DNA of 64,000 bases from Burkholderiaceae bacterium (lineage in GTDB: Bacteria > Pseudomonadota > Gammaproteobacteria > Burkholderiales > Burkholderiaceae_C), in the NCBI GenBank assembly GCA_030695205.1, contig JAUYTN010000040.1:18426-82425 (forward strand). Direction: 5' to 3'. This document shows, piece after piece, positions 1,966 to 57,165 of the stretch (the stretch's first letter is position 1; each line of letters begins with the position of its first letter). A program made the position numbers and the translations under genes. The notes below the pieces were generated by a model. It was not told the origin of the DNA, ran no database searches, and worked only from the letters and a program-made list of their open reading frames with translations.

Positions 1966-2603
1966 GCAGCGCGCTGTCGTGGCAAGACTGGCTGTCCATG
2001 CTGCTGCACTTCGCGGCCTGGTCGCTGCTGTCCATCGGCGGTGCGGTGGCCACCCTGCCCGACATGCACCGCTACCTGCACACGCAGCAGCAGTGGCTCA
2101 GCGAGCTGCAGTTTGGCAGCAGCGTGGCCTTGGCGCAGGCAGCACCGGGCCCCAATGTCTTGTTTGTGGCTTTGCTTGGCTGGCACATCGGGCTCAACGC
2201 CGCTGGGGGCACGGCCGCAGGTTGGCAGGCCTGGCCACTGGCGCTGCTGGGCATGGGTGTGGCCATGGTGGCCATTTTGCTGCCCTCCTCGTTGCTGACC
2301 TACGGTGCCACACGCTGGGTACACCGCCATCAGCAGCAGCTGTGGGTGCGCGCCTTCAAGCAAGGGCTGGCACCGGTGGTGGTGGCGCTGATGCTGGCCA
2401 CCGGCTGGCTGCTGTCGTTCCCGGCACTGGGTGACGCGCCGTTGGGTGGCGTCCCGGATCAGTGGTGGACCTGGCTGCTCCAGCAGCCCTGGGCCGGTTG
2501 GTGCTTGACAGTGGTCGCCGCCCTGCTCGTCTGGCGAACCCGACTCCACCTGCTGTGGCTGCTGGGGGCGGGTGCGCTATTGGGCGCGATGGGTTGGGTC
2601 TGA
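1962..2603 (+). CDS. chromate transporter (CHR family), half-size protein 2
   Basis: SIGGAVATLPDMHRYLHTQQQWLSELQFGSSVALAQAAPGPNVLFV repeats the CHR signature. Proposed TTG start at 1962 overlaps the upstream stop (TTGA); alternative ATG at 1998. The track ORF 1656.. is extended upstream in an overlapping frame. Confidence 0.75.
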   Translation: MSSALSWQDWLSMLLHFAAWSLLSIGGAVATLPDMHRYLHTQQQWLSELQFGSSVALAQAAPGPNVLFVALLGWHIGLNAAGGTAAGWQAWPLALLGMGVAMVAILLPSSLLTYGATRWVHRHQQQLWVRAFKQGLAPVVVALMLATGWLLSFPALGDAPLGGVPDQWWTWLLQQPWAGWCLTVVAALLVWRTRLHLLWLLGAGALLGAMGWV

Positions 2604-3380
2604 GGCGCTTGTTGCTGTTGCTACTGACTGTGCCTGGCGCTGGCGCAGGGCTTCGTACAGGCACACCCCGCTGGCCACCGACACGTTCAGGCTTTCCACC
2701 GCGCCTTGCATGGGGATGCTGATGAGTGCGTCGCAAGTTTTGCGGGTCAGCTGGCGCATACCGGCGCCCTCGGCCCCCAGCACCAGCGCCACCGCACCGG
2801 TCAGGTCGGCCTGGTAGAGGGTTTGGGGTGCGTCGTCGCTGGTCCCGATGATCCAGATGTTGCGCTCTTTGAGTTCACCCAGGGTGCGCGCCAGGTTGGT
2901 GACCATGAAGTACGGCACAGTTTCGGCAGCCCCACTGGCCACCTTGGCCACGGTGGCGTTGATGCCTGCCGCGTGGTCTTTGGGGGCGATGACGGCGTGG
3001 GCCCCTGCCCCGTCGGCCACCCGCAGGCAGGCCCCCAGGTTGTGGGGGTCGGTGATGCCGTCCAGCACCAGCAGCAAGGGGTTGGCCACCCCGTCGGCCT
3101 CCAGTTGCTCCAGCAAGTCGTCGAGCGAATGCACCTGGGCCACGGCCTCCACCTTGGCAGCCACGCCCTGGTGGCCATGGCTGCCCGCGAGCCGGGCTAA
3201 GCGAACCACATCGACCTCGATCAGCCGAACCCCTGCCTCGCGCGCGCGCTCGGTGAACTGGCGCATGCGGGCGTCGCGGCGGGTAGGGTCGACATACACC
3301 TCGATGACCGATGCAGGCGCTGTTTTCAACCGCACGCCCACGGCGTGAAACCCAAAAAGTACTTTGTGTGGTGATGACAT
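2577..3380 (-). CDS. rlmB: 23S rRNA (guanosine-2'-O)-methyltransferase RlmB (SpoU/TrmH family)
   Basis: SpoU substrate-binding N-domain followed by GITDPHNLGACLRVADGAG and LVLGAEGAGMR...SLNVSVASG methylase motifs. Confidence 0.9.
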   Translation of the reverse strand: MSSPHKVLFGFHAVGVRLKTAPASVIEVYVDPTRRDARMRQFTERAREAGVRLIEVDVVRLARLAGSHGHQGVAAKVEAVAQVHSLDDLLEQLEADGVANPLLLVLDGITDPHNLGACLRVADGAGAHAVIAPKDHAAGINATVAKVASGAAETVPYFMVTNLARTLGELKERNIWIIGTSDDAPQTLYQADLTGAVALVLGAEGAGMRQLTRKTCDALISIPMQGAVESLNVSVASGVCLYEALRQRQAQSVATATSASDPTHRAQ

Positions 3381-3421
3381 GGGGGGCGATTATCCCCGCC
3401 CGCCCGCCCGCGCCCAGTGCC

Positions 3422-4177
3422 TCACCTCACCATGCGACCAGCCTCGATGGTGATGCGGTGCTCGCACCGGGCGGCAATGCCCCTGTCGTGGGTCACCAGC
3501 AGCAAGGTGGTGCCCAGCTCGCGGTTGAGGTCGAACATCAGGTTCATGACGGTCTCGCCGGTGGCAAAGTCCAGGCTGCCCGTGGGCTCATCGGCCAGCA
3601 GCACCGCCGGCCGCACCACAAACGCCCGCGCCAGGGCCACCCGCTGCTGCTCTCCCCCCGACAGCACCTTGGGGTAGTGACCCAGGCGCTGGCCCAGCCC
3701 CACCCTCTGCAGCATGTCGGTGGCCAAAGCACGGGCATCGCGCTGCCCGCCCAACTCCAGGGGCAGCATGACATTCTCCAGCGCGGTGAGGTTGCCCATA
3801 AGCTGAAAGCTCTGGAACACAAACCCTACCTTTTCGGCACGCAGCGCCGCACGCTCGTCCTCGGTGAGCACAAACAGGTCTTGCCCATCAAGGCGCACGG
3901 TGCCGGTGGTGGGTGTGTCCAGCCCCGCGATGATGGATAGCAATGTGCTTTTGCCCGACCCTGATGCGCCCACAATGGCAGCGGTTTCGCCCCGCTGCAG
4001 AGAAAAATCGATATCGCGCAAAATAGACAGAGTGCCACCGGAATCGGTGACCGACTTGCCCAGACCCTCTACCGCCACCACCGTGGCGGCACCTGAGACG
4101 CTTTTCGGGTCATGGCGACCCACCTCGGACTTCACATTCGCAACGTCAGACATGCCCAAACCCATCTCCATTGACAC
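3422..4177 (-). CDS. ABC transporter ATP-binding protein (YbbA/LolD-like)
   Basis: Walker A GASGSGKST, signature LSGGEQQRVALARA, Walker B LLADEPTGSLD. Divergent from a tesA-like gene, as in E. coli tesA/ybbA. The exact start among several N-terminal Met codons is uncertain. Confidence 0.85.
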   Translation of the reverse strand: MSMEMGLGMSDVANVKSEVGRHDPKSVSGAATVVAVEGLGKSVTDSGGTLSILRDIDFSLQRGETAAIVGASGSGKSTLLSIIAGLDTPTTGTVRLDGQDLFVLTEDERAALRAEKVGFVFQSFQLMGNLTALENVMLPLELGGQRDARALATDMLQRVGLGQRLGHYPKVLSGGEQQRVALARAFVVRPAVLLADEPTGSLDFATGETVMNLMFDLNRELGTTLLLVTHDRGIAARCEHRITIEAGRMVR

Positions 4178-4871: not shown

Positions 4872-5981
4872 ATGAGTCTGACCACACTGCCAGCCAACCA
4901 GGCGCTGGCCCAATTGGAAGGGTTCGATGCCATCGTCGATGCCCGAACCCCCCTGGAACATGCCCTGGATCACCTGCCGGGAGCCGTCAACTGGCCCAGC
5001 CTCGACGACGACGAGCGGGTAACCATTGGCACCATGTACAAACAGGTCAACCCCTTCGAGGCCAAAAAGCGGGGCGCTGCGATGGTGGCCCGCAACGTAG
5101 CGCGACATATCGAGCGCGAGCTGCTGGATGCCCCCCGCAGCTGGCGACCACTGGTGTACTGCTGGCGTGGTGGCAACCGCAGCGGGGCCCTGGCCACCAT
5201 CCTGAGCGCCATCGGATTTCAGGTGACCCTGCTGGAAGGGGGCTACAAAGCCTTTCGCCACGCGCTGTTGGACGACCTGCCCCGCCAGGCCCAGCGCCTG
5301 AGCTACCGCGTGGTGTGTGGCCCAACCGGCAGTGGCAAAACCCGACTGCTGCACGCACTGCGCGCAGCAGGTGCCCAGGTACTGGACCTGGAAGCCCTGG
5401 CCAACCACCGTAGCTCGGTGCTGGGCCACATCCCCGGTGTGCGCCAGCCCAGCCAGAAGCACTTTGACACGCTGATCTGGAACGCCCTGCGCGGCATGTC
5501 AGACCAGCGCCCGGTGTATGTGGAGAGCGAAAGCAAAAAGGTCGGTAACGTCGGTGTACCCGATGCCCTGATGGACGCCATGCGCACCAGCCCCTGCATC
5601 GACCTGCACCTGCCAACCGACGAGCGGGTGGAGTTGCTGCTGGAGGACTACCGATTTTTCGTGACCGACCCGGAGTTTTTTTGCCAGCGCCTGCTGGCGC
5701 TCAACGAGCGCAGGGGCCAGGCCCAGGTGGGCGAATGGATCTCACAGGTGCGTGGTCAACAAACCCCCAAAGTGGTGCACTCGCTGCTGACTGAGCACTA
5801 CGACCCGATGTATGCGCAGTCCATTGGCCGAAATTTTGTGCAATACGGCCACGCACTGCCCTGCGAGTTGTCAAGCCGTTCACCTGAGGCCCTGGCGCAA
5901 GCAGCCCAGTGGCTCATGGACCATGAGCACCTCATGGCTCAGGCTGAACCTTCCGCCAGCCGACTGACCTCGTTGGCCTGA
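4872..5981 (+). CDS. selU: tRNA 2-selenouridine synthase
   Basis: Rhodanese domain with CWRGGNRS active-site loop followed by P-loop GPTGSGKT. 369 aa. Confidence 0.9.
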   Translation: MSLTTLPANQALAQLEGFDAIVDARTPLEHALDHLPGAVNWPSLDDDERVTIGTMYKQVNPFEAKKRGAAMVARNVARHIERELLDAPRSWRPLVYCWRGGNRSGALATILSAIGFQVTLLEGGYKAFRHALLDDLPRQAQRLSYRVVCGPTGSGKTRLLHALRAAGAQVLDLEALANHRSSVLGHIPGVRQPSQKHFDTLIWNALRGMSDQRPVYVESESKKVGNVGVPDALMDAMRTSPCIDLHLPTDERVELLLEDYRFFVTDPEFFCQRLLALNERRGQAQVGEWISQVRGQQTPKVVHSLLTEHYDPMYAQSIGRNFVQYGHALPCELSSRSPEALAQAAQWLMDHEHLMAQAEPSASRLTSLA

Positions 5982-8045: not shown

Positions 8046-10630
<2,585 letters not shown>

Positions 10631-10676
10631 GTCAATTCAGGGGGGCTTGTTAAAAAATGGATTCTACCGGGGTGGC

Positions 10677-10862
10677 TCAGCCCAGCAGCCACATACCCAC
10701 CACCCCCACCAGCACGGCACACAATCCGTAGAAGCGCAGCTGACCATCGGACAGTTGCAACAGGGTCGCAAACACCTGGCGCCACCGAGCGGGGGCCAAC
10801 AATGGAAAAAGGCCCTCAATCACGCAGACGAGGGCCACAGCCATCCACAGGCTCAACTCCAT
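10677..10862 (-). CDS. DUF2065-family small membrane protein
   Basis: 61 aa, two hydrophobic helices. Conserved position between hflC and hisZ. Confidence 0.7.
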   Translation of the reverse strand: MELSLWMAVALVCVIEGLFPLLAPARWRQVFATLLQLSDGQLRFYGLCAVLVGVVGMWLLG

Positions 10863-10868
10863 GCGGCG

Positions 10869-11765
10869 CTACTTGGCCGCAGCACCCACGCTGCTGCTGC
10901 GCATGGCCTTGAAGAAGTCGGACGAAGGATCCATGACCATGACGTCGGATTTCTTGGCAAAGCTGGTTTTGTAAGCCTCCAGGCTGCGGTAGAACTGGGC
11001 AAAGGCAGGGTCGCGGCCAAAGGCCTCGGCATAGGTGCGGGCCGCCTCGGCATCGCCCTCGCCCTTGACCTTCTGCGCTTCGCGGTAGGCATTGGCCAGG
11101 GTGACTTCGCGCTGGCGATCGGCAGATGCCCGAATCTGCTCGCCCTCTGCGGCGCCGGTTGAACGCAGCTGGTTGGCCACCTGCTGGCGCTCGGCCTCCA
11201 TGCGGCGATAGACCGACTCAGTGATGGTTTCGAAGTAGTCGATACGGTTGATCCGAACATCCACCACATCCATGCCCCAGGGCTTTTCGGCACTCCGCAC
11301 AGCGGCCAGTACCTGGCCGAGCACATCACCCATGAGCTGGTCGCGCCGGGTGGACAGCAGCTCGTTGACGGAGCGCTTGTTGACCTCTTGCTGGAACGAG
11401 TTGCGAACCACCCGTGTCAGCTGCAGGGCACCGGCACGCTCATCGAGCCCCACGTTGCGGATGTACTCCTGCGGCTCGGCAATGCGCCAGCGCACGTACC
11501 AATCGATCACCACACGCTGCTTTTCGGCCGTCAGCATGGGTTCGGCATCGCTGCTTTCCAGCGTCAGCAAGCGCTTGTCGATGTACGACACGTTTTGAAA
11601 CGGCGGGGGCAGCTTGAAGTTCAGCCCCGGCTCGGTAATGACCGAGCGAATCTGGCCCAGCTGGTACACCACGCCAAACTGGCGCTGGTCGACCACAAAA
11701 AGCGTCGAGCCCACAACGGCCAGCAGCAACAGCAGCGAGGCGCCAATCAATCCCAATCTGTTCAT
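10869..11765 (-). CDS. hflC: protease modulator HflC (SPFH/band 7)
   Basis: N-terminal TM segment plus SPFH domain. Directly downstream of hflK. Confidence 0.92.
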   Translation of the reverse strand: MNRLGLIGASLLLLLAVVGSTLFVVDQRQFGVVYQLGQIRSVITEPGLNFKLPPPFQNVSYIDKRLLTLESSDAEPMLTAEKQRVVIDWYVRWRIAEPQEYIRNVGLDERAGALQLTRVVRNSFQQEVNKRSVNELLSTRRDQLMGDVLGQVLAAVRSAEKPWGMDVVDVRINRIDYFETITESVYRRMEAERQQVANQLRSTGAAEGEQIRASADRQREVTLANAYREAQKVKGEGDAEAARTYAEAFGRDPAFAQFYRSLEAYKTSFAKKSDVMVMDPSSDFFKAMRSSSVGAAAK

Positions 11766-48484: not shown

Positions 48485-48658
48485 GGGCAATGGCATCGGG
48501 TGGTCAGAAACGGGCAACGGCCACCGCAATGCCCTCTTTACCCGATGGACCTACCGTACCTTGCGTCACAAAGGTCAGGTCGGCGGGTTCAATCGGACAA
48601 AAAACCTGCGGCTGGCAGTGGGTACCTACCGACTCGGCGAGTACCCATCAGGGGAAAC

Positions 48659-48934
48659 CTACGATTTTGGCACGGCCTGCTCTAGCGCTTTCTGCCACAC
48701 ACGGGCATATGCGGGCCGCAGCTGCTGCTCTATCTCTGCCACGGTGCGGAAGACGTCTATTCCTGTCATCCCCGCCTGTTGCGCAAAGTAGGCGATTTCC
48801 CCCGCTTCGGGCTTTCGTTTACCTGATTTCCACTCACTGATTCGGGCGGGCTTTATGCCTAGGTCTTCTGCCATCGCTGCTTGCGCGCGTCTGGTTGTGG
48901 TGGCTGCTCGGTCTATCAGTTCGTCTATGGTCAT
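48659..48934 (-). CDS. phage HTH (Cro/CI-type) transcriptional regulator, probable prophage repressor
   Basis: 91 aa. HTH segment AQAAMAEDLGIKPARISEWKSGKRKP. Divergent from the replication module, like rstR/rstA in CTX-type phages. Confidence 0.7.
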   Translation of the reverse strand: MTIDELIDRAATTTRRAQAAMAEDLGIKPARISEWKSGKRKPEAGEIAYFAQQAGMTGIDVFRTVAEIEQQLRPAYARVWQKALEQAVPKS

Positions 48935-48969
48935 GGCGTGTTACCACTTTTGGGAATTTGTCTGCTACA

Positions 48970-49002
48970 TTACGCAAAACGGTAATTTACCTTTTTGCGT
49001 AA
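48970..49002. promoter_or_regulatory. operator-like inverted repeat TTACGCAAAA-N13-TTTTGCGTAA
   Basis: Perfect 10 bp arms at 48970-48979 and 48993-49002, 36 nt upstream of the repressor ATG. A third GCAAAACGG half-site lies at 49033-49041. Confidence 0.5.
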
Positions 49003-49177
49003 CACAGACTGTACACCCAAGCGGCAACCCATGCAAAACGGCACAGATCAAGCCACACGGCACGAACGACAAGCGGGGCAGGCTCCTACCTGTTACCCGG
49101 CTATTCCGTCCCCTGTGGCCTCTTTGCTGCTGTCCCTGCCCCCGTCGCCCCTCCCGCCTCTCCCCTACACACCCGAC

Positions 49178-49435
49178 ATGCATTCGGCCCGCTGCGCAGC
49201 TGCAGCCCGTGCCCGGGTCGTACTTGTTCAACACGTTCAGGTGTCCGACCGTTGCGGCTCTCAGTGCGGCCGCATCGCTGGCCTGTGGACCACACCTGAT
49301 GGTGTGGATCTGTGGGTTGTCGATTTGCTTGGCGGTGGCCGGACCCATGTCCCTGCCCGTCGCGTCACCCAGTGCAGCCACCTGGATGACCGCTGCATCT
49401 GCGCGGGTGAGTCAGTTGCCGGGGTGCAGCAATGA
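49178..49435 (+). CDS. hypothetical Cys-rich small protein upstream of rep
   Basis: 85 codons from the ATG at 49178. Its TGA overlaps the rep ATG (ATGA). No recognisable domain, and the local GC is higher than in the rest of the phage. Confidence 0.35.
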   Translation: MHSARCAAAARARVVLVQHVQVSDRCGSQCGRIAGLWTTPDGVDLWVVDLLGGGRTHVPARRVTQCSHLDDRCICAGESVAGVQQ

Positions 49436-50655
49436 GCCGCATTTTTTCCCCGGATTTTTTGGACCCCGTTTCAAGTGACGTGCATGTAACACGTCACTTT
49501 AGTCTCACCAGTGAGACAAACTGCTCAAAAAACGATCAAATCCCGCTAGCAAATTTGCAGCATTTCCCAGCGCATCACGAAACCACCAAAAACCCTCGTG
49601 TCTTCTGCGACTGGGTGTCGATGTACCAAACCCATGCCCCCGGCCTGCCCATGCTGCAGGACGGCTGCTTTGTCCGCTTCGATGCTGATGGCGGCCACGA
49701 GTCAACCACCCTCAAAAAACTCAAGGTTGAGGGGAGCCACGAAAGCGCGGTATTCGTTCGCTGTGACGGCCAGACGGTCCACTTTGAGGGCAACGTGTCC
49801 AAGTTTGCACGGCGGGACAACGTGTTCGGGTTCACCTTCGCCCAATGCGTCCAGCGCATCAATTCATTGCTCGGGACTCTCGGGCTTCCCCCGTTCACTC
49901 CAGGTCAAAAAATGGAAGTCAACAGCCCCAACGGTTGGCAAACCCATTGGACTGGTGCCCGCATTACCCGGCTTGACCTCACCGAAAACTTCGCTTCTGG
50001 CAGCAAGGAAAACGCATATCACTTCATGCGCTTCCTCTCCAGCCAACAGGCCTCCCGGCTCAAAACTGGCACCCACGGTGAAGGGGAAACAGTGGATTTC
50101 GGAAGGGGCTCCCGTCGGGTCTATTCCAAAGCCTACTTAAAAGGCCCTGAACTTCGCAAACACGCAAAAAAAGACACACGCGGACCATTACCCGAACTTT
50201 CAAAACCTTTCGATCCATATTTGTTTGAACTTGCCGACTGGTGCGATGCCGTTGGCCTTGTCCGATTCGAAACAACCTACAAATCTACATTCTTAATTGA
50301 CAATGGTTTTCAATTCCTTGGGGGAATTAACATGCAAAAACTTGAAATTGATTTCAACGAGCGCCAATCCGTGTTTACTCGCGCTTCCTGTGATGTCGAA
50401 GAAATTACCAATCTAGATTCCAAAACCCTTGCCATTTACCGGATGTGGGAGGCTGGCGATGATGTGACGTCGAAATGTAGCCGCGCCACCTTTTATCGTC
50501 ATCGCGCAAAGCTTCTTCCATATGGCGTCGATATTGCCATTAAAAGCAACGTAATCAAATTTCAACCCAAAACAAGGATTATCAAACTCGAACCTGTGTC
50601 CATGCCCGACTTTTACAAAATTCCATCCCCGTCATATATTCGCCTTGCGGCTTAA
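49432..50655 (+). CDS. filamentous-phage replication initiation protein (gene II / RstA-like)
   Basis: 407 aa first large gene of the plus-strand module, with a CDWVSM entry motif. Resembles gene II/X-family initiators of RSS/RSM/Cf-type inoviruses as far as I recognise them. Followed by a pV-size ORF. Confidence 0.75.
   Translation: MSRIFSPDFLDPVSSDVHVTRHFSLTSETNCSKNDQIPLANLQHFPAHHETTKNPRVFCDWVSMYQTHAPGLPMLQDGCFVRFDADGGHESTTLKKLKVEGSHESAVFVRCDGQTVHFEGNVSKFARRDNVFGFTFAQCVQRINSLLGTLGLPPFTPGQKMEVNSPNGWQTHWTGARITRLDLTENFASGSKENAYHFMRFLSSQQASRLKTGTHGEGETVDFGRGSRRVYSKAYLKGPELRKHAKKDTRGPLPELSKPFDPYLFELADWCDAVGLVRFETTYKSTFLIDNGFQFLGGINMQKLEIDFNERQSVFTRASCDVEEITNLDSKTLAIYRMWEAGDDVTSKCSRATFYRHRAKLLPYGVDIAIKSNVIKFQPKTRIIKLEPVSMPDFYKIPSPSYIRLAA
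49473..49499 (+). other. perfect 10 bp-stem hairpin inside the 5' end of rep
   Basis: AAGTGACGTG-catgtaa-CACGTCACTT read directly. Covers codons 14-23 of the annotated rep ORF. Confidence 0.6.
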
Positions 50656-50672
50656 TTCTGGAGAACCAAAAA

Positions 50673-50963
50673 ATGCTAATTCTTGAAGGTCTTATTCATT
50701 CAATTATTGCTAAGCCATTTCGCAACAAACAAACCGGTGAAACTGGCATTACCGTCAGTGCAAATATTATCGATGTTGCTTCAACTGGCGAGCCTTCTAT
50801 TGTTAGGTTGAAAATTGATGAATCTGCCGCCCCAGCTTGGCAGAAGGCGCAAGGAAAATCCATGCGTGCTGAGGTCCGACCATGGCACATGGTCAACGAG
50901 AAAGGCGGCGAAACTTCCGGCTATGCACTGGTTGATAAGAAAGCACTCCCCAATGTCATCTAA
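50673..50963 (+). CDS. probable ssDNA-binding protein (pV-like, by position and size)
   Basis: 96 aa ORF with a GGAGA Shine-Dalgarno, immediately after rep as in inoviruses. No motif-level proof. Confidence 0.55.
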   Translation: MLILEGLIHSIIAKPFRNKQTGETGITVSANIIDVASTGEPSIVRLKIDESAAPAWQKAQGKSMRAEVRPWHMVNEKGGETSGYALVDKKALPNVI

Positions 50964-51048
50964 GCACCACCAGCGCGGAATTCTCGTTGTCGAATTCATG
51001 GTGATATTTATCATCATCCCGTACCTCATACATGCAGCGGTGAAATAA
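50953..51048 (+). CDS. small hydrophobic phage protein (31 aa; pVII/pIX-size)
   Basis: MSSKHHQRGILVVEFMVIFIIIPYLIHAAVK. Overlaps the end of the pV-like ORF, and its stop overlaps the next ATG (TAATG). Confidence 0.4.
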   Translation: MSSKHHQRGILVVEFMVIFIIIPYLIHAAVK

Positions 51049-51224
51049 TGTATCAATGTCTCGATTGTTCCGCCTTCTTCGATGTTCCTTCTGAGGTCAC
51101 CGAAGAAATGATTATCGAACACGCTCAAGCTGGCGGTTTTTCTGGTGAGGACGTCGATTTGTCCCGTGTCGGTGAGGACATTTGCCCTGAATGTGGCAGT
51201 GGTTCCATCGATGAAATCGCATAG
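51048..51224 (+). CDS. zinc-ribbon small protein (58 aa)
   Basis: Not in the ORF track (<60 aa). MYQCLDCSAFF...DICPECGSGSIDEIA carries CxxC...CPxCG like FmdB-type zinc ribbons. Same strand as, and coupled to, the neighbouring phage genes. Confidence 0.6.
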   Translation: MYQCLDCSAFFDVPSEVTEEMIIEHAQAGGFSGEDVDLSRVGEDICPECGSGSIDEIA

Positions 51225-51287
51225 AAATTGCAACGGATAACCAAATTCTCGAATTTGGTTTTTCGGTGTAATTTCGCACCATTTCAC

Positions 51288-51536
51288 ATGAAAGCTTCAG
51301 AAATGAATAAGTTTTTCGCTCGCCAAGCTGCCCGCGCAGCGCTCGTGAAGTTCGGCACCGTTGGTGCTGTGTTGTCCGGCCTGGGCATGTCTGCTCATGC
51401 TGCCCTGCCCACGGAAGTCACCACCGCCATCACCACCGCAGGTGATGACATGGTTGCCGCTGTCACGGCCATCATCGTCGCCTTTGTGGCCTTCTGGGGC
51501 CTGAAGAAACTGGGTCAAAAACTCGGCTGGATTTAA
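51288..51536 (+). CDS. inovirus major coat protein (pVIII-like) precursor
   Basis: Signal peptide ending AHA. Mature part of about 44 aa has an acidic N-terminus (ALPTEVTTAITTAGDDM), a hydrophobic core (VAAVTAIIVAFVAFWGL) and a basic C-terminus (KKLGQKLGWI). Alternative start at 51303. Confidence 0.85.
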   Translation: MKASEMNKFFARQAARAALVKFGTVGAVLSGLGMSAHAALPTEVTTAITTAGDDMVAAVTAIIVAFVAFWGLKKLGQKLGWI

Positions 51537-51563
51537 TTCCTTCAAGCGCCCAACGACTTAAAC

Positions 51564-51588
51564 AAGGGGGTTACGTGCCCCCTTTTTT
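51564..51588 (+). terminator. rho-independent terminator after the coat gene
   Basis: GGGGG-ttacgtg-CCCCC followed by TTTTTT. This is the classical position after gene VIII. Confidence 0.8.
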
Positions 51589-51600
51589 ATTGGAGCCGCT

Positions 51601-51879
51601 ATGGCTGATATGTATTTGATTGGTTGTACCACTCCCCCCAATCTTTCCGGCACTTCGTTGGCTGCTCAGTGTCCGATTGCTAATCGTCGGGCCTTCCTGG
51701 TGGACAGTGCAAAACTCGAAGCTGCGAACCTCCAGCTTGAGTTAATCCCGTCATCTATTGAGTCTGAGCGTATTCAGGACATGGCCCAATTGTTCGGCCT
51801 GATGGTGTTAGTCCTGGTTGGTGTTTGGGGTGCTAAGCAACTGCTTAGGATATTTTCCGACGACACCACCAAGGATTAA
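51601..51879 (+). CDS. phage hypothetical protein with C-terminal TM segment
   Basis: 92 aa. TM segment LFGLMVLVLVGVWGA. Confidence 0.5.
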   Translation: MADMYLIGCTTPPNLSGTSLAAQCPIANRRAFLVDSAKLEAANLQLELIPSSIESERIQDMAQLFGLMVLVLVGVWGAKQLLRIFSDDTTKD

Positions 51880-51882
51880 AAA

Positions 51883-51951
51883 ATGCCATTGCCGCTTGAA
51901 TACCTTTTTGCCGCCTGCCTGTTCCTCATTCTTTGGGTGGCGTTCAAATGA
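51883..51951 (+). CDS. tiny hydrophobic ORF (22 aa)
   Basis: MPLPLEYLFAACLFLILWVAFK. Its stop overlaps the ATG of the pIII-like gene (ATGA). Confidence 0.3.
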   Translation: MPLPLEYLFAACLFLILWVAFK

Positions 51952-53393
51952 CACCATTTCTGTTTGTCGCCCTGCTCCTGGCATCAACTGGTGCATTTGC
52001 GCAGTCTCAAGGATCAACCCGCTTTGGTTCCGTCCCCCGCGAAGTGTTTCGGCCTATCCCTGGTGGTTATGAAATGCGCCAGGGTGGGTTTACCCCAAAC
52101 CTGACAAACGTCCCTCAACCCCTATCAATGGCTCAGGGCATCAAGGGGCGCGGTGCCTTCACCGGTGGTAAGCATTTCCGCATTGATGGCACAGGCGGCA
52201 TGAAATCCTACGACATGGGCGGTATTTTTGATATGCCTGTTCCAGGTACAAAGCAAACCGCCCCCGTTCAGGTGATCACAAAGAACATCCCAAAAAAGAA
52301 CGTCGCCAAAGCTGTTTTTAATGCCTTGCCCGTTATTGGCACTGCTGTTGCAGTATTGGAAATTGCCCACATTCTTGCGACAGAATGGGATTCCCGTGAC
52401 CCTGAGGGTTTCCAGCAGGACGGGCCAGCAGTTGTTGACCCTGTTGACAAATCAATTACCCGCATGAAAACTGAGTCTTATTGGGACTATGCTGGCCAAC
52501 GCTATTCTTCTCCAAGCGCTGCCTGTGCTTCCGTGTCCGATTATCAAGGCACGTCAATTGGTGCCATTGCTGTCTACGTAGCGTCACACCTTTATGATTG
52601 CCAGATTCCGTCCGGTTCTGTTGGTCAAACTGTCAAGGTAGAGCCGCCACCAGTTAAGCGGCCTATTCCTGCTGATATTTTGGATGAGATAGCCGATGAT
52701 ATGCCCGAGAACTTAGAGCCATTGGTCGATGATGCATTTGAGCAGGGCCACAATAAACCCGGCTTTGCAATTGATATCCCCAACGACTTGCCCAAAGAAT
52801 CTAGCGGACCTGCCACTACATCACCCAAAACCGAAACAGTGAACAAGCCGGACGGGTCAAAAGTAGAGACAACTACAACAACTGATTTCACATATCAGGG
52901 CGATAAAGTCAAAATTGATCAACGGAAAAAAACCGTTTACATCGATCCCAACGGCCTCGAAACACCCGGCGATGACATAACCGTCACGGGTGAAACCCCT
53001 GACCCCGTGGCCAGTGATCCCACCAGTCCGGGCACCGAAGATGCTCCAGCTGATCCATCCGTGCCGGACCCCAACCAGGACCCCAACAAAGAGCCCACAG
53101 AAATTGACCTCGATATCTGCAAGCTCAACCCCGATATCCTGGCGTGCAAAAAACTTGATTCCCCAGAAGAGGGAGAAATCCCCAAGGAGGATAGAGATAT
53201 CACCCTCCAGACTGGGCCAACGTTCGGCGGTGGTGCCTGCATCCCTAACGTTACCGTTCAGGTGTTCGGGACCACCATCACCGCTCTGAATTTCACCGAG
53301 CCCTGCCGCTGGCTCTCTGACTACCTCAAGCCCCTGTTGCTGCTCATGGCATCCATTAGTGCGGTGTTCATCGTCCTTCCTCGGGAGTCCTAA
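51948..53393 (+). CDS. minor coat / adsorption protein (pIII-like)
   Basis: ATG at 51948 gives the signal peptide MTPFLFVALLLASTGAFA. Contains a Pro/Asp/Thr-rich linker and a C-terminal membrane anchor LLLLMASISAVFIVL. Its position before the pVI-like and pI-like genes fits. Confidence 0.65.
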   Translation: MTPFLFVALLLASTGAFAQSQGSTRFGSVPREVFRPIPGGYEMRQGGFTPNLTNVPQPLSMAQGIKGRGAFTGGKHFRIDGTGGMKSYDMGGIFDMPVPGTKQTAPVQVITKNIPKKNVAKAVFNALPVIGTAVAVLEIAHILATEWDSRDPEGFQQDGPAVVDPVDKSITRMKTESYWDYAGQRYSSPSAACASVSDYQGTSIGAIAVYVASHLYDCQIPSGSVGQTVKVEPPPVKRPIPADILDEIADDMPENLEPLVDDAFEQGHNKPGFAIDIPNDLPKESSGPATTSPKTETVNKPDGSKVETTTTTDFTYQGDKVKIDQRKKTVYIDPNGLETPGDDITVTGETPDPVASDPTSPGTEDAPADPSVPDPNQDPNKEPTEIDLDICKLNPDILACKKLDSPEEGEIPKEDRDITLQTGPTFGGGACIPNVTVQVFGTTITALNFTEPCRWLSDYLKPLLLLMASISAVFIVLPRES

Positions 53394-53395
53394 AA

Positions 53396-53680
53396 ATGGG
53401 CGTTGGTGCTTTCCTCCTGGCTCTTGTGCAGCCCATCCTCTCCCGCATCTTGATTGCTCTGGGCTTCTCCGTTGTGACCTTCGTTGGCATGGACCTTGTT
53501 ATTCAGCAGCTGGTGGATTACGCGGTCAGTGCCTGGGGTGGCCTGCCTGGGAACATCCTTGCCCTAGCTGGCCTTGCTGGAGTCGGTGAGGCTCTTTCCA
53601 TCATCATGGGTGCAGTCCTTACCCGTTTGCTCATTTGGCAGCTCACCAAGTCTGTCAAGCTGATGGGGGTCAATACATGA
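53396..53680 (+). CDS. minor coat protein pVI-like (DUF2523-type membrane protein)
   Basis: 94 aa with three hydrophobic segments. Its stop overlaps the Zot-like ATG. Confidence 0.6.
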   Translation: MGVGAFLLALVQPILSRILIALGFSVVTFVGMDLVIQQLVDYAVSAWGGLPGNILALAGLAGVGEALSIIMGAVLTRLLIWQLTKSVKLMGVNT

Positions 53681-54795
53681 TTACCATCATCACGGGCACA
53701 CCCGGTGCGGGCAAAACCCTCTACAGCATCTCCAAGCTCGTCAAGGGCGTATTGGGAACCACCGTCAAGCGCACCAAAGACGATGGCACGACCGAAGAGA
53801 TACCCCGGCGCATCGTCACCAACATCAATGGCCTGTTGCTTGACCACGAGCTGATAGACGATGGTCCCGAGCATGGGCTAAATGGGTGGTTCAAGTGGTG
53901 CAAGCCCGGCGATTTCATCGTGTTTGATGAGGTTCAAAAACCTTGGCCTCCCCGTGCTGCTGGCTCTAAGGTGCCCGACTACATATCGGAGCTTGAGACC
54001 CACAGACACAAGGGCGTGGACTTCGTGTTGATCACGCAAAACCCCATGCTCATTGATCGCAACGTAACCGCCCTAGCAGGCCGGCACGTTCACGTTCGGC
54101 GCTTCGGGTCCATCGGCGCGGCTATCGTCTATGAGTGGGACCACTGCAGCCGATCCCTCCTCTATTCCAAGGCACTGGCCAAATCCACCTGGAAATACGA
54201 CAAAAGCGTTTTCAAGCTCTACAAGTCGTCGGAGCTCCACACCAAACCACAAACCCGAGTCCCCCCCCTCGTGTTCGTCGTTGTCCTGGCCCTGGCGGCG
54301 GGTGCGTATCTCATACCCTCCACCATGTCCAGGATTGCCGAGAAATCAGATCCTGGTCAACCCGGCGACCTTTCACAATCACCAGCTGGCCCCGGCTCCC
54401 CAGCTCGACCAGGACAACCAGGACAACCAGCGGCCAACGTGCACGCATTGGCACGTGTCCCCGGCCCATCTGACAATGAGGCCACCAACGGACCCATGTT
54501 GGATGACCTCATCCTTACGGGTGTACTGTCTGCAGCCCAAAACCTCGCCATCTTCCAATGGGTTCCCAACGGTCTACCCCGGTACACCTTCACGCCCAGC
54601 CAGCTGCAGCGCTGGGGAATGGTCGTCAGGGTCTATGCTGACTGCCGCGCTGAGCTGACTGACGAACATGGCCGAAAGCGGCATTTCGGTTGCATGCCCG
54701 GTGTTCCTGTTGACACCCTCCCCCCTGCTCTCACTGGCCCAGCTGGTGATGACTCACAAACCGAGCGCAGCCGCCCTTTCAATGGGTCCGTGTGA
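53677..54795 (+). CDS. Zot / pI-like phage assembly ATPase
   Basis: ATG at 53677. Walker A GTPGAGKT, Walker B IVFDEVQ, HRHKGVDFVLITQNP, a central TM segment (LVFVVVLALAAGAYLI) and a periplasmic C-domain. Confidence 0.9.
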   Translation: MITIITGTPGAGKTLYSISKLVKGVLGTTVKRTKDDGTTEEIPRRIVTNINGLLLDHELIDDGPEHGLNGWFKWCKPGDFIVFDEVQKPWPPRAAGSKVPDYISELETHRHKGVDFVLITQNPMLIDRNVTALAGRHVHVRRFGSIGAAIVYEWDHCSRSLLYSKALAKSTWKYDKSVFKLYKSSELHTKPQTRVPPLVFVVVLALAAGAYLIPSTMSRIAEKSDPGQPGDLSQSPAGPGSPARPGQPGQPAANVHALARVPGPSDNEATNGPMLDDLILTGVLSAAQNLAIFQWVPNGLPRYTFTPSQLQRWGMVVRVYADCRAELTDEHGRKRHFGCMPGVPVDTLPPALTGPAGDDSQTERSRPFNGSV

Positions 54796-54843
54796 ACTCT
54801 TGGTGTAACTGTATTGATTTTGTAACGATCTGATTAAATCTTT

Positions 54844-54873
54844 TCGCTACAGAAAAAATACAGTTCAACCAGG
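54844..54873. repeat. 30 bp direct repeat, copy 1 (TCGCTACAGAAAAAATACAGTTCAACCAGG)
   Basis: Matches 55350-55379 at 28 of 30 positions. Overlaps the stop codon of the KfrA_N-like gene. Confidence 0.85.
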
Positions 54874-55278
54874 AGTCAGCCACCCGAAAACCTTTGCTGC
54901 TTTCGTCCATGCCTCTACTGCGTCCGCTGGGTCGTAGTGGGGACGTGCTTTCGGTTTCCCGTCTTTGACGTAAGTCGCCAGCAGTGGCCGAACGGCTGCG
55001 CGTAGTTCTTCGTTTTCTGCCCGCGCCTTTTCGGTTGCTGCTTTTGCTGCTGCCAGCATGTAGCCCATGATTTCCAGCTGGCTGCGCAGGTTCTCCAGTT
55101 GCTTCTCTGCCGTGTTTTCGACGGTCTGCTGCTGGTCCTGCCACACTTTGATCATCGGTCCTATTGTTGAAAATGACCCCGTTCCCGCCTCTTCGCGGAC
55201 TGCGGCTAGCGTCGGCTTTTTGCCTGCTGCTTTCAGGTTGTCACAAATCCGATTGACTTGATGCTGCTTGATTGCCAT
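54865..55278 (-). CDS. KfrA_N-like DNA-binding protein (possible second phage regulator)
   Basis: N-terminus VNRICDNLKAAGKKPTLAAVREEAGTGSFSTIGPMIKVWQDQQ matches the plasmid KfrA N-terminal DNA-binding pattern. Coiled-coil-like centre. Confidence 0.7.
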   Translation of the reverse strand: MAIKQHQVNRICDNLKAAGKKPTLAAVREEAGTGSFSTIGPMIKVWQDQQQTVENTAEKQLENLRSQLEIMGYMLAAAKAATEKARAENEELRAAVRPLLATYVKDGKPKARPHYDPADAVEAWTKAAKVFGWLTPG

Positions 55279-55349
55279 GGTGCTATCTCCTGGTAGAACT
55301 GTAGTGCCAATGTAGTAAATTATACTACAGAAACGCTACACCATATCAA

Positions 55350-55379
55350 TCGCTACAGAAAAAATACACTTTAACCAGG
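55350..55379. repeat. 30 bp direct repeat, copy 2 (TCGCTACAGAAAAAATACACTTTAACCAGG)
   Basis: Lies in the promoter region of the KfrA_N-like gene, next to clustered CTACAG/CTGTAG motifs (55296-55360). Confidence 0.85.
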
Positions 55380-55404
55380 TATTTTGGCGGCGTCCTGGTA
55401 TGCC

Positions 55405-55427
55405 GGGGGGGATGGGGGGATGGGGGG
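55405..55427 (+). repeat. G-tract GGGGGGG-AT-GGGGGG-AT-GGGGGG
   Basis: Read directly. The partly complementary C-tract CCCCCCACCCCCTCCCC is at 55499-55515. A small hairpin ATGGGGG-gaa-CCCCCAT is at 55420-55436. Confidence 0.8.
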
Positions 55428-55611
55428 AACCCCCATGGTGAACCGGACGTTTCGCCCTCCAGCCCTGCCACTTGGCGAAGTTCTGCCCCCGGATCAAGCC
55501 CCCCACCCCCTCCCCTTTTGATAAACAAACGGCGCACCCCCTGCCCACCCATCACCGGAGCGCGTGCCCCCGCATTGCGTTAGGGATCGTTAGTCGCGCA
55601 AGCGATGGAGA

Positions 55612-55637
55612 CAACCCCCACCCACTGCGCGGGGTGG
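55612..55637. repeat. 26 bp inverted repeat, left arm (CAACCCCCACCCACTGCGCGGGGTGG)
   Basis: Perfect reverse complement of 55968-55993. The match extends to 34 bp with 2 mismatches. Each arm also folds on itself (CACCCAC/GTGGGTG). Confidence 0.9.
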
Positions 55638-55664
55638 GTGCGCCCGGACGTAAGGGGCACCAAT

Positions 55665-55719
55665 CCCGCAATGACTGAGAGACAAGATGTGCAGTGCCCC
55701 GGAATGACCGATTGACATG
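55665..55719. repeat. 55 bp direct repeat, copy 1, containing two GCCCCGGAATGAC-type iterons
   Basis: Matches 55885-55939 with 2 mismatches. The internal 13-mers are about 31 bp apart. Confidence 0.9.
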
Positions 55720-55778
55720 ATGTGCAGCGCCCCGGCCTGCCCCCCGTAGTCGGTGCGCTGCCCCGACGAACCCCGGAG

Positions 55779-55832
55779 CGATTGCCCCCAGCTGGGGCTG
55801 CGGCGGAGCCCGGCCACGGCTGGGGGCAATCG
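55779..55832. repeat. central hairpin with 14 bp perfect stem CGATTGCCCCCAGC / GCTGGGGGCAATCG and a 26 nt loop
   Basis: Read directly. Lies midway between the 26 bp inverted repeats. Confidence 0.9.
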
Positions 55833-55884
55833 TGGAGTGTGAGGACTGCAGCGCCCCCGGCGTAGGGTGCAGGCCGTGCCCTGC

Positions 55885-55939
55885 CCCGGAATGACTGAGA
55901 GACAAGATGTGCAATGCCCCGGAATGACCGATTGACATG
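55885..55939. repeat. 55 bp direct repeat, copy 2
   Basis: See copy 1. Same orientation as copy 1 although the flanking 26 bp repeats are inverted. Confidence 0.9.
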
Positions 55940-55967
55940 GAGGGATTGGGGCACCTTTCGCCAGCAT

Positions 55968-55993
55968 CCACCCCGCGCAGTGGGTGGGGGTTG
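55968..55993. repeat. 26 bp inverted repeat, right arm (CCACCCCGCGCAGTGGGTGGGGGTTG)
   Basis: Perfect reverse complement of 55612-55637. About 90 bp upstream of the ORF starting at 56082. Confidence 0.9.
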
Positions 55994-56081
55994 GCTCCAC
56001 CGTAGGCCAGAGCCCGGTTTTTGCGCAGCAAAAAAACGCCCAAAACCTTTGCTATCCTCAAAAACACAGGAGGACAACAAC

Positions 56082-56474
56082 ATGGGACTAGAAGACCGCG
56101 ATTGGTACAGAGAAGAACACCGGCAAAAAAGACGAGCCGAATACACGCAACCACCACCCCCACCACCACCCCGAGCCCCACCAGCCAGGCCAACAACACG
56201 AACCACCCGGGCAACTCAGCCTCCCCCCGATTTGTCCGTGTACATCGATGCCTTCGAAAAAGACAAACGTCTCAACTTTTTGAAGTGGTTTCTGTTCTTC
56301 CTCGTGCTCTGTTTTGCCACATACGGCGCCCTCGCCATCGTCCGCGACTTCAAACAAAAAGCAGTCGCCAAACACCAACAAACAGCACCCACACAACAGC
56401 CAAACAAACACATCCAGGAACAACCACCGCCCCAGCCACCACAACCGCAAAAGCCCCAGCCTCGCTACCTTTGA
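56082..56474 (+). CDS. proline-rich single-pass membrane protein, hypothetical
   Basis: ATG at 56082 with a strong AGGAGG Shine-Dalgarno. MGLEDRDWYREEHR N-terminus, PPPPPPP tract, TM segment FLKWFLFFLVLCFATYGALAIV and a Gln/Pro-rich tail. Stops 3 nt before the recombinase ATG. Confidence 0.65.
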   Translation: MGLEDRDWYREEHRQKRRAEYTQPPPPPPPRAPPARPTTRTTRATQPPPDLSVYIDAFEKDKRLNFLKWFLFFLVLCFATYGALAIVRDFKQKAVAKHQQTAPTQQPNKHIQEQPPPQPPQPQKPQPRYL

Positions 56475-56477
56475 ACC

Positions 56478-57095
56478 ATGCTCATCGGTTACGCCAGAGT
56501 CAGCACCACAGACCAGGACACAGCACTCCAACTGGATGCACTCAAGCGAGCGGGTGTAAAAAAAATCTACGCTGAAAGTTGCTCCGGCATCAGCACCAGG
56601 CCACAGCTACAGACACTACTTCACGACATGCCCCCCGGGGCTGTCCTGGTCGTCTGGAAAATTGACCGCATCGCCCGAAGTCTCCCCGACCTCCTGCACA
56701 TCCTGCAGCGGCTCAAGACAAGGCGCGTCGGATTGCGCTCCCTTACCGAGCCTCTCGACACATCCACCCCAATCGGGGAATTCATGCTTCAGATACTCGG
56801 CGCAGTCGCCCAGCTCGAACGAGCCATGATCCGGGAGCGCGTCATAGCCGGACAAGTCGCAGCCATCCAGCGCGGCCAAAGACATGGACGGCCATCGTCC
56901 ATCAACGAAACTCAGAAACTCAAGATTTTGGAAATGTTCGCCGCTGATGCGACACGCTCACACATTGCGCGGGAGCTGGGTGTCAGTCGCTGGGCTGTAT
57001 GCAGGGTGATTGGTCAGGCGCAGGACCCGAACCACCCGAAATATGGCCCACACCGTCCAGTGTTGGGGCCTTTGTTGGACAATCCGAAGAGCTGA
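56478..57095 (+). CDS. small serine recombinase (resolvase/invertase family)
   Basis: MLIGYARVSTTDQ catalytic Ser motif, LVVWKIDRIARS, SLTEPLDTSTPIGEF and a C-terminal HTH (SHIARELGVSRWAVCRV). 205 aa. Confidence 0.92.
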   Translation: MLIGYARVSTTDQDTALQLDALKRAGVKKIYAESCSGISTRPQLQTLLHDMPPGAVLVVWKIDRIARSLPDLLHILQRLKTRRVGLRSLTEPLDTSTPIGEFMLQILGAVAQLERAMIRERVIAGQVAAIQRGQRHGRPSSINETQKLKILEMFAADATRSHIARELGVSRWAVCRVIGQAQDPNHPKYGPHRPVLGPLLDNPKS

Positions 57096-57165
57096 AATAA
57101 CAATTTCACCATACTTCAGGGGCTGCGCCGCTGAACACCGCGCAACCAACCCACGCACCCACACC

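Follow-up and report, generated by a model that had tools for sequence, protein, structure and literature searches.

Inverted repeats beside a serine recombinase gene in a phiRSM-like filamentous prophage probably belong to a conserved intergenic cis-element

Does a small serine recombinase act on the long inverted repeats that lie next to its gene, or do the repeats serve the phage that carries both? We asked this of a 64,000-nt stretch of contig JAUYTN010000040.1 from a Burkholderiaceae bacterium (hereafter the window). An earlier note had described in it perfect 26-bp inverted repeats around an iteron-rich segment, just upstream of a membrane-protein/serine-recombinase operon. The note likened this arrangement to a Hin/Gin-type invertible switch and offered as alternatives a res or attP site of the recombinase, a phage origin or packaging-signal region, and a miniature inverted-repeat transposable element (MITE) or repetitive extragenic palindrome (REP) insertion. 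We found the segment within the large intergenic region of an integrated filamentous phage (inovirus). It is very probably a conserved intergenic cis-element of such phages, not a substrate of the recombinase.

Architecture of the module

The inverted repeats and iterons lie inside the sole long non-coding stretch of the prophage. From left to right, this region contains the following features.

55279-56081 (+), large intergenic region, 803 bp, defined from the list of open reading frames (ORFs) and from the same gap in the gene calls of relatives
55404-55515 (+), upstream G-run/C-run hairpin, with an 8-9 nt indel among close relatives; the G-runs of this second large hairpin read GGGGGGGATGGGGGGATGGGGGG
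55518-55528 (+), conserved block 1, TTGATAAACAA, made up of invariant alignment columns and placed in the loop of a small hairpin
55577-55612 (+), conserved block 2, GCGTTAGGGATCGTTAGTCGCGCAAGCGATGGAGAC, the 3' end of which is the base of the closing stem
55603-55641 (+), left arm of the inverted repeat and 5' half of the closing stem, with the perfect 26-mer at 55612-55637
55665-55766 (+), left iteron cluster, with a 55-bp repeat at 55665-55719 and cores at 55689, 55722, and 55753 (degenerate)
55779-55832 (+), central GC-rich hairpin, with 20-nt arms at 55779-55798 and 55813-55832
55846-55939 (+), right iteron cluster, with cores at 55846 (degenerate), 55876, and 55909 and a 55-bp repeat at 55885-55939
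55964-56002 (+), right arm of the inverted repeat and 3' half of the closing stem, with the perfect 26-mer at 55968-55993
55993-56040 (+), conserved right block, GGCTCCACCGTAGGCCAGAGCCCGG, followed by a small hairpin and ACGCC
56018-56034 (+), small hairpin TTTTTGC-GCA-GCAAAAA, the stem of which covaries between lineages

The window contains two exact copies of the 26-mer CAACCCCCACCCACTGCGCGGGGTGG, one at 55612-55637 (+) and the other at 55968-55993 (-). With up to three mismatches allowed, no further copies were found in the window and no match arose in 100 dinucleotide shuffles, so the perfect inverted repeat reported earlier is real and far above chance. The 34-bp extension proposed for it is in fact longer, reaching 39 nt at 92% complementarity. 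A weaker extension brings it to ~70 nt, out to 55673 and 55936, and each arm is itself palindromic (CACCCAC..GTGGGTG).

Between the arms, the two 55-bp direct repeats of the earlier note (55665-55719 and 55885-55939) proved 96% identical, and both are composed of ~33-bp units. The right copy occupies the mirror position of the left about the center of the palindrome, yet in direct orientation. Of the four 13-mers that the note assigned to these repeats, three are exact copies of GCCCCGGAATGAC (at 55696, 55883, and 55916) and one is degenerate; they are spaced at 33 rather than 31 nt. A sharper iteron core is the 14-mer GTGCAGTGCCCCGG, present in six copies, all on the + strand. The central hairpin (arms 90% complementary, with a 14-bp perfect part) and the distance to the recombinase gene (ORF 56478-57095, beginning 485 bp right of the right 26-mer) were as described, as was the lack of an internal promoter: a consensus scan returned no sigma-70-like site in 55642-55963. 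A sigma-70 or sigma-54 promoter within the iteron unit (TTGACA or TGGACA..TGCA) was also considered and rejected, the spacing being wrong by eye and by scan.

Folded as single-stranded DNA, the + strand of 55595-56010 gave one large hairpin of -132 kcal/mol, with z about -10.5 to -10.9 relative to shuffles. The interval 55590-56010 is nearly invariant among relatives of 92-96% identity, and substitutions and an indel occur in the intergenic sequence to either side.

Recurrence of the module in other phage lineages

Homologs were sought by three routes: through an ORF called across the right half of the element, by an iteron search of fetched loci, and by scanning viral and metagenome collections with a two-iteron DNA pattern. 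The module was present in five further lineages (L157/L158; L159; L171; L143/L195/L209; and L160/L182/L191). In their layout, block 1, (T)TGATAAACAA, is followed by block 2, GCGTTAGGGATCG..GCGATKGAGAC, a stem arm, and two to three + strand iterons. There is then usually a central GC hairpin, followed by more iterons in the same orientation and the complementary arm, and the 3' end reads GGCTCMACC..GAGCCCGGTTTTT-hairpin-AAAAAACGCC. Equivalents of the central hairpin, with different sequence, were found in L157, L143, and L171. The version in L159 is compact, an 18-bp stem enclosing three tandem 41-nt iterons. In every lineage the iterons were seen on the + strand only. The combination of inverted outer and direct inner parts, which the earlier note had called unusual, thus holds and is conserved across lineages. 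Iteron spacing differs between them (33, 37, and 41-42 nt), and an explanation of the spacing as helical phasing was rejected on these values.

The genes around the module are less constant. The order in the window is Zot - (KfrA) - intergenic region - (transmembrane (TM) protein, integrase (Int)) - repressor - Rep, and that in L143 is Zot - intergenic region - repressor - Rep. Recombinase, KfrA, and TM genes are all missing from L143 and L160/L182, where the module lies between Zot and the repressor. L158 encodes a Rep_trans Rep instead of the Phage_CRI type. Identity of Zot to that of the window is 38% for L160 and 64% for L143, and the Reps of L143 and L160 are 95% identical to each other. 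Because gene content varies in this way, the module is untied to the recombinase, to KfrA, or to any Rep family. It recurs across lineages in which Rep, Zot, and integration genes have been exchanged.

In metagenomes, the degenerate two-iteron pattern gave 64 matches, comprising five true relatives, ~45 copies of an unrelated soil-bacterial motif, and a few simple tandem arrays. At the ~45 soil loci (e.g. L161 566-611, L173 7840-7885, and L188 3873-3919), TAACCGGTGCGCCGCCCCGGTTA occurs twice, 32-34 nt apart, immediately upstream of a gene starting ATGTCCAGCCAGCC; this pair resembles a paired operator or promoter element. Two arrays of 17-nt period (L199 130-197 and L202 659-740) contain the exact 14-mer GTGCAGTGCCCCGG in non-phage contexts, probably by coincidence.

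Covariation of the stems

The closing stems were aligned without gaps from their conserved base (TKGAGAC / GGCTCMA) over 26 positions. Watson-Crick pairing holds at 18-25 of the 26 in each lineage, even though past position 8 the arms have unrelated sequences. A compensatory change from G:C to T:A is seen at position 2, and all lineages have an A.G mismatch at position 6. Over the variable positions 10-26, an arm matches its own partner at 13-17 of 17 positions, versus 3-12 for the right arms of other lineages. The central hairpin likewise shows a compensatory change, A:T to T:A, between L157 and L158, which are 97% identical. Judging from these alignments, the inverted repeat is a selected stem kept by compensatory change, and the GC-rich 26-mer is a lengthening of this stem specific to the window lineage.

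The stem positions that are not Watson-Crick include 10 G.T and no A.C pairs. G.T without A.C points to folding of the + (viral) strand. Folding z-scores obtained for other lineages as single-stranded DNA include -14.6, -4.9, and -4.0.

The site of recombinase action

Looked up by exact sequence, the recombinase was found in 18 contigs, which were compared with the window by BLAST. Four of these (L002, L003, L005, and L010) contain a circular junction that joins window position 57106 to 48661; L002 and L003 are circular contigs of 8477 nt, collinear with 48661-57106 and with ends overlapping by ~30 nt. The integrated form was found in L001, L004, L006, L008, and L009. Five contigs that encode an identical DUF498 protein and lack the prophage (L225, L226, L229, L230, and L232) provided the empty bacterial site, attB.

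The phage site, attP, reads ...GAAGAGCTGAAATA-AC-GATTTTGGCACGG... (core part GCTGAAATA-AC-GATTTTGGC), and the empty attB reads ...GGGGAAACCT-AC-AATTTCACCATAC... (core part GGGGAAACCT-AC-AATTTCACC). Comparison of the two located the hybrid sites in the window.

48649-48674, attL, GGGGAAACCT-AC-GATTTTGGC, with AC at 48661-48662
57087-57113, attR, GCTGAAATA-AC-AATTTCACC, with AC at 57100-57101

As attL and attR are reciprocal hybrids of attP and attB, comparison of the four sites limits the crossover to a 2-bp AC core. A core of this length is expected for a serine recombinase, and it is consistent with the absence of any direct repeat longer than 10 nt between the prophage ends. The crossover at 57100-57101 falls 5 nt past the recombinase stop codon and ~1.1 kb right of the inverted repeat segment. 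The earlier note had suggested mapping the attP junction of the excised circle, and this junction maps to the AC core 3' of the recombinase gene. There, attP lies in the overlap between the 3' ends of the integrase and repressor genes, with circular and integrated forms both present.

The attP site has imperfect dyad symmetry (GCtgAAATa AC gATTTtgGC). Its half-sites are A/T-rich (GC..AAAT), whereas the arms of the inverted repeat are GC-rich. In direct comparison the two are dissimilar: the attP 26-mer matches the arm at 9 of 26 positions, and its best match to the whole intergenic region is 15 of 26, the same level as in random background windows. The attB site is intergenic, between an aminotransferase and a DUF498 gene, and shares with attP only the AC and loose dyad flanks. 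These data place a phiRSM-type serine integrase at a non-tRNA attB with a 2-bp core. A further contig, L007 (1177-1240), carries the identical recombinase and the same ...AAATAAC after it, then continues differently (ATATTCGAACAAATCC...), with an unrelated gene on the + strand. Either this junction marks a second site of integration or the neighboring module has been exchanged.

Under the switch reading, the adjacent recombinase would invert 55642-55963 by crossover between the arms. Long inverted repeats ~320 bp apart, with a gene of the resolvase/invertase family 485 bp away, do recall Hin, Gin, and Cin, which likewise pair inverted repeats with a nearby small serine recombinase, and the best PHROG match of the recombinase is annotated 'DNA invertase'. 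We nevertheless consider inversion very improbable. Crossover takes place elsewhere (AC at 57100-57101 / 48661-48662), in A/T-rich half-sites unlike the GC-rich arms. Seven independent assemblies covering all or part of the segment, each a consensus rather than a set of reads, are collinear with the window, and where contigs break off, they do so within the 55-bp direct repeat or central palindrome and not at the arms. Orientation, which the earlier note had proposed to check with sequencing reads, was the same in these seven assemblies and in all six lineages, with the iterons always on the + (gene-sense) strand. The module is also carried by L143/L195/L209 and L160/L182, all without a recombinase gene, and arm sequences differ between lineages whose recombinases share 75% identity. 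Unlike Hin, Gin, and Cin, then, the window has arms that are not recombinase sites, no orientation polymorphism, no sigma-70-like promoter in the enclosed segment by consensus scan, no alternative coding sequence, and a module that occurs without any recombinase.

The same data bear on the other two readings. An attP or res-type site, for integration or multimer resolution, would fit the proximity of the segment to the recombinase gene and its internally palindromic arms, dimer-binding sites often being palindromic. Such a role is, however, extremely improbable: attP was read directly from circular, integrated, and empty-site sequences and sits at the junction 3' of the recombinase gene, the module occurs without a recombinase, and the segment is dissimilar to the att sites. 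A MITE or REP-type insertion lodged in the prophage would be in keeping with 39-nt terminal inverted repeats, a short unit, and a GC-rich inner arm part specific to the window lineage, but it too has very little probability. The flanks of the arm ends (marked by slashes in ...GCGCAAG/CGATGG and CCACCG/TAGGCC) share no target-site duplication. The 26-mer is confined to the two arms within the 64-kb window, the 20-mer arm core is unmatched in 2.9 million viral contigs, and no scattered copies turned up in the sequences searched; all true homologs from the viral and metagenome scans occupy one position in an inovirus genome, with the same conserved blocks on either side. One orientation in all assemblies and lineages, together with two lineages lacking the recombinase, leaves the switch, attP, and MITE readings unsupported. 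As a caution for similar loci, long inverted repeats beside a resolvase/invertase gene in a single-stranded DNA phage are no evidence of an invertible switch.

Possible roles on the viral strand

Fixed orientation, + strand folding, independence from Rep, and an Ff-like position lead us to infer a cis role on the single-stranded genome. On the same grounds, the phage origin or packaging-signal region, listed among the alternatives of the earlier note, is the best-supported of its readings. The overall explanation that we favor, and hold to be reasonably probable, is a cis-acting module of the phiRSM-like filamentous phage intergenic region that acts on the single strand. Two conserved blocks flank its long closing stem, which the inverted repeats form, and the stem encloses two same-strand iteron clusters around the central GC-rich hairpin. 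The module would work while the + (viral) strand is single-stranded, most likely as a complementary (minus)-strand origin and/or a morphogenetic (packaging) signal. The iterons would be recognized by a factor that stays constant from phage to phage; as their reader must presumably be common to all lineages, it could be a host protein or a phage protein, such as the small SH3-like protein described below as ORFpre.

In the Ff phages (M13/f1/fd), hairpins of the intergenic region serve as the minus-strand origin and packaging signal. The prophage resembles this paradigm in that its main non-coding region lies between the morphogenesis and the replication/regulation genes and contains a stable, covarying + strand hairpin. 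By this analogy, a specific role as single-strand origin or packaging element has perhaps slightly less than an even chance.

Several observations weigh against a role of this kind. The functional assignment rests on analogy with Ff, and the strand-asymmetric covariation would be equally compatible with a + sense RNA. The L143 version folds only weakly better than shuffles (z = -1.7). In the single-stranded DNA prediction, the iteron cores have a probability of being unpaired of ~0.27 versus ~0.35-0.45 for the remaining interior, and on this value we rejected the idea that the fold holds the iterons single-stranded. Most of the other related inoviruses examined lack a comparable long inverted repeat, so the structure is not a general inovirus requirement. 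Specifically, relatives found through the recombinase (54-58% identity; viral L011-L015 and Comamonadaceae L065-L071, too distant for alignment) have no comparable inverted repeat/iteron structure near the recombinase, and among viral relatives found through Zot (L139-L155) the module occurs in L143 only. The lineages that do carry it are related to one another, so arguments from co-occurrence do not draw on independent samples. Finally, the packaging signals of integrative Xanthomonas inoviruses are 20-26-nt hairpins inside gII (bioRxiv 10.1101/2023.12.30.573655).

The module could also act in double-stranded DNA, as an iteron array bound in the replicative form or the prophage by Rep, the small SH3-like ORF, the repressor, or KfrA. 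It would then be a plus-strand origin or enhancer, a site of copy-number or transcription control, or a centromere-like site, and the inverted repeat would be secondary (a cruciform or a historical by-product). Direct repeats at a regular 33-nt spacing are typical of protein-binding arrays, a KfrA_N DNA-binding gene adjoins the region, and ORFpre strictly co-occurs with the module. The module also accompanies a 95%-identical replication module in L143 and L160, whose Zot proteins differ. Conserved block 1, TTGATAAACAA, located ~85 nt upstream, might be likened to CTTG/ATA-type nick sites of rolling-circle replication (RCR), the motif being CTTG/ATA in L143. We judge the array unlikely, if still worth bearing in mind. 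Two unrelated Rep families are found with one and the same iteron core and set of flanking blocks, and the core GTGCAGTGCCCCGG does not co-vary with Rep (Phage_CRI in the window and L143, Rep_trans in L157/L158), which argues against Rep specificity. KfrA is absent from L143/L160, iteron spacing varies between lineages (33, 37, or 41-42 nt) such that helical phasing is not conserved, and the covarying stem and the 10:0 ratio of G.T over A.C are left unexplained. A structured + sense RNA, either a 3' untranslated region that stabilizes or terminates the transcript of the structural operon or a leader for the operon of TM protein and recombinase, would explain the pairing asymmetry just as well, G.T (G.U) without A.C on the coding-sense strand suiting RNA and single-stranded DNA alike, and the module does come after the last gene of a long operon. 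This is nonetheless quite improbable. Rfam returned nothing beyond sub-threshold microRNA-hairpin noise, there is no terminator-like T-run, the downstream gene differs by lineage (a + strand TM gene or a convergent repressor), and iterated 14-mers are unusual in RNA elements.

To return to a cis-element acting on the single strand, a hairpin with internal direct iterons seems to be a form of inovirus intergenic cis-element not described before. A more specific proposal, which we regard as doubtful, is that the module constitutes an undescribed 'iterons-inside-a-hairpin' recognition element of a Comamonadaceae-type inovirus clade, serving as packaging signal and/or complementary-strand origin and read by ORFpre. 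If true, a dedicated protein-DNA recognition system would stay constant while Rep, Zot, and integration modules are swapped. The packaging and complementary-strand cis signals of integrative filamentous phages 'remain largely unknown' (bioRxiv 10.1101/2023.12.30.573655), and in the literature searched, the Xanthomonas study was the only detailed one of such signals in these phages. One clade now has a sharply bounded, conserved, covarying candidate element and a candidate protein partner. Its stem, conserved A.G mismatch, iterons, central hairpin, and two flanking blocks are all parts open to testing.

ORFpre, a candidate iteron binder

A small gene upstream of rep encodes the candidate partner.

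49031-49435 (+), ORFpre, small Cys-containing protein with a predicted SH3/Tudor-like barrel

The ORFpre gene has a 4-nt overlap with the start of rep, and its translation is coupled to that of Rep. Of the non-structural phage proteins, ORFpre alone is conserved (40-62% identity) in all lineages of sufficient length for the test, including the lineage with a Rep_trans Rep, and among all loci fetched it was found only where the module was found. The family, which comprises 127 clusters at 50% identity in a large library, is uncharacterized, and ORFpre has no match to a Pfam or PHROG family. Its structural model is moderately confident (predicted local distance difference test score, pLDDT, of 68) and places the SH3/Tudor-like barrel in the C-terminal domain. 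The best PDB matches in a structure search were SH3/Tudor-like at E ~0.02, none of them significant, so that with these values no function can be assigned. As a hypothesis, we propose ORFpre as a candidate iteron binder.

Comparison with known systems

The resemblance to Ff, as established for M13/f1/fd and computed here for the window hairpin, lies in a non-coding region after the morphogenesis genes, large imperfect + strand hairpins, and fixed orientation. The two differ in that Ff has no sequence similarity to the window module, a single ~400-nt structure in the window encloses direct 14-mers on both sides of a central hairpin, and the window phage has no pIV, pVII, or pIX homologs by sequence.

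The closest phage relatives of the recombinase are the ORF14 proteins of Ralstonia phages phiRSM1 and RSM3 (Habenivirus), with 45-47% identity. The phiRSM1/RSM3 cassette consists of a proline-rich TM protein (ORF13), a serine integrase (ORF14), attP, and a repressor (ORF15) (PMC4471427; PMC3816273), and the RSM3 annotation places attP between ORF14 and ORF15. The window phage has the same cassette composition, with attP between integrase and repressor, and the 'membrane-protein/serine-recombinase operon' of the earlier note is accordingly a phiRSM-type integration cassette of TM protein and serine integrase. Integration differs: phiRSM uses the tRNA-Ser(UCG) 3' end and a common core of 13 bp (PMC4471427; PMC3816273), whereas the window phage occupies the aminotransferase/DUF498 intergenic site, with an AC core, imperfect dyad flanks, and no tRNA. 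In both, the intergenic region that follows the zot-like gene contains a long perfect inverted repeat or hairpin. In phiRSM3 (L138, RSM3), positions 5657-5851 contain a 31-bp perfect inverted repeat with nested repeats, which forms a ~195-nt hairpin (z = -11) that is unannotated in the record. The phiRSM3 hairpin differs from the window module in having no direct iterons and no sequence similarity to it.

The single-strand origins (sso) of rolling-circle plasmids and single-stranded promoters such as Frpo of plasmid F are long imperfect palindromes that work in one orientation on the displaced single strand. Like these, the window module is a long imperfect palindrome with conserved short motifs within otherwise variable stems; unlike them, its stem has no RSB or CS-6 motif and no clear -35/-10 pair, and a link of the module to priming is purely inferential. 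The attP(+) forked hairpin of CTXphi is similar in that inverted sequences of an integrative inovirus form a hairpin in + single-stranded DNA. That hairpin is a XerCD substrate, whereas the window phage integrates via a double-strand attP elsewhere and a phage serine integrase. No dif-like sequence was recognized by eye in the window module, and no systematic search was made. The Xanthomonas phiLf family also comprises integrative inoviruses without pIV, pVII, and pIX, with a GC-rich DNA hairpin as packaging signal. Its signals are 20-26 nt long, lie inside rep next to the origin, and are orientation-independent, whereas the window element is ~400 nt long, intergenic, and orientation-fixed. 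The Xanthomonas inovirus literature cites CTTG as the recognition sequence of RCR nick sites (bioRxiv 10.1101/2023.12.30.573655).

Prophage gene content and further observations

The prophage runs from the repressor (-) through a small SH3-like ORF, Rep (pII), a pV-like protein, coat proteins, a pIII-like protein, a pVI-like protein, and Zot/pI to KfrA_N (-), the large intergenic region, the proline-rich TM protein, and the serine integrase. The genes outside the intergenic region, together with the prophage as a whole, are as follows.

48661-57101 (+), integrated filamentous (inovirus) prophage, phiRSM-like, ~8.44 kb, from PHROG/Pfam matches and collinear circular contigs
48659-48934 (-), phage repressor with a helix-turn-helix, 91 aa in the prophage versus 123 aa in the circular form
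49432-50655, Rep, Phage_CRI/G2P, by profile match
53635-54795, Zot/pI
54865-55278 (-), gene for a KfrA_N-domain DNA-binding protein, on the left flank of the intergenic region
56082-56474 (+), proline-rich membrane protein, counterpart of phiRSM ORF13 (phiRSM description in PMC3816273)
56478-57095 (+), small serine recombinase (Resolvase + HTH_7), 205 aa, the phage integrase
Within the prophage, a pV-sized ORF, coat proteins, a pIII-like protein, and a DUF2523/pVI-like protein

The recombinase matches PF00239 at 1.3e-39, in addition to HTH_7. Host genes for an aminotransferase and a DUF498 protein stand on either side of the prophage, and the 64-kb window contains no tRNA genes. Neither the prophage nor its intergenic region showed DNA similarity to any of 50,697 phage records, in near or distant mode. 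Used as a search anchor, the KfrA_N protein gave no viral match and one protein cluster only. We class the prophage and its integration cassette as new additions to the phiRSM type, here with a non-tRNA attB.

Integration alters the repressor. In the circular phage (L002 5938-6309), the 3' end of the 123-aa repressor gene is antisense to the 3' end of the recombinase gene, with an overlap of ~82 nt, and attP sits within the repressor gene (window equivalents 48659-48934 (-) and 57013-57101). Integration swaps out the last ~30 repressor codons, leaving the 91-aa repressor of the prophage. As the C-terminus is shortened in this way, prophage and episome encode different repressor proteins, which bears on the regulation of these prophages.

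Two further sets of repeats are likely operators. AT-rich palindromes and repeats (TGTAGT..TACTACAG) occupy 55300-55369, upstream of the KfrA_N gene, and a 23-nt inverted repeat in L157 (530-586) is similar to them. At 48970-49002, between the repressor and the small ORF, TTACGCAAAA..TTTTGCGTAA forms a perfect inverted repeat of 10 bp. Lastly, L070, a Rhodoferax metagenome-assembled genome, carries a related inovirus prophage twice in tandem (Zot + recombinase; 1981-3736 and 9715-11470), the copies being 7734 bp apart.

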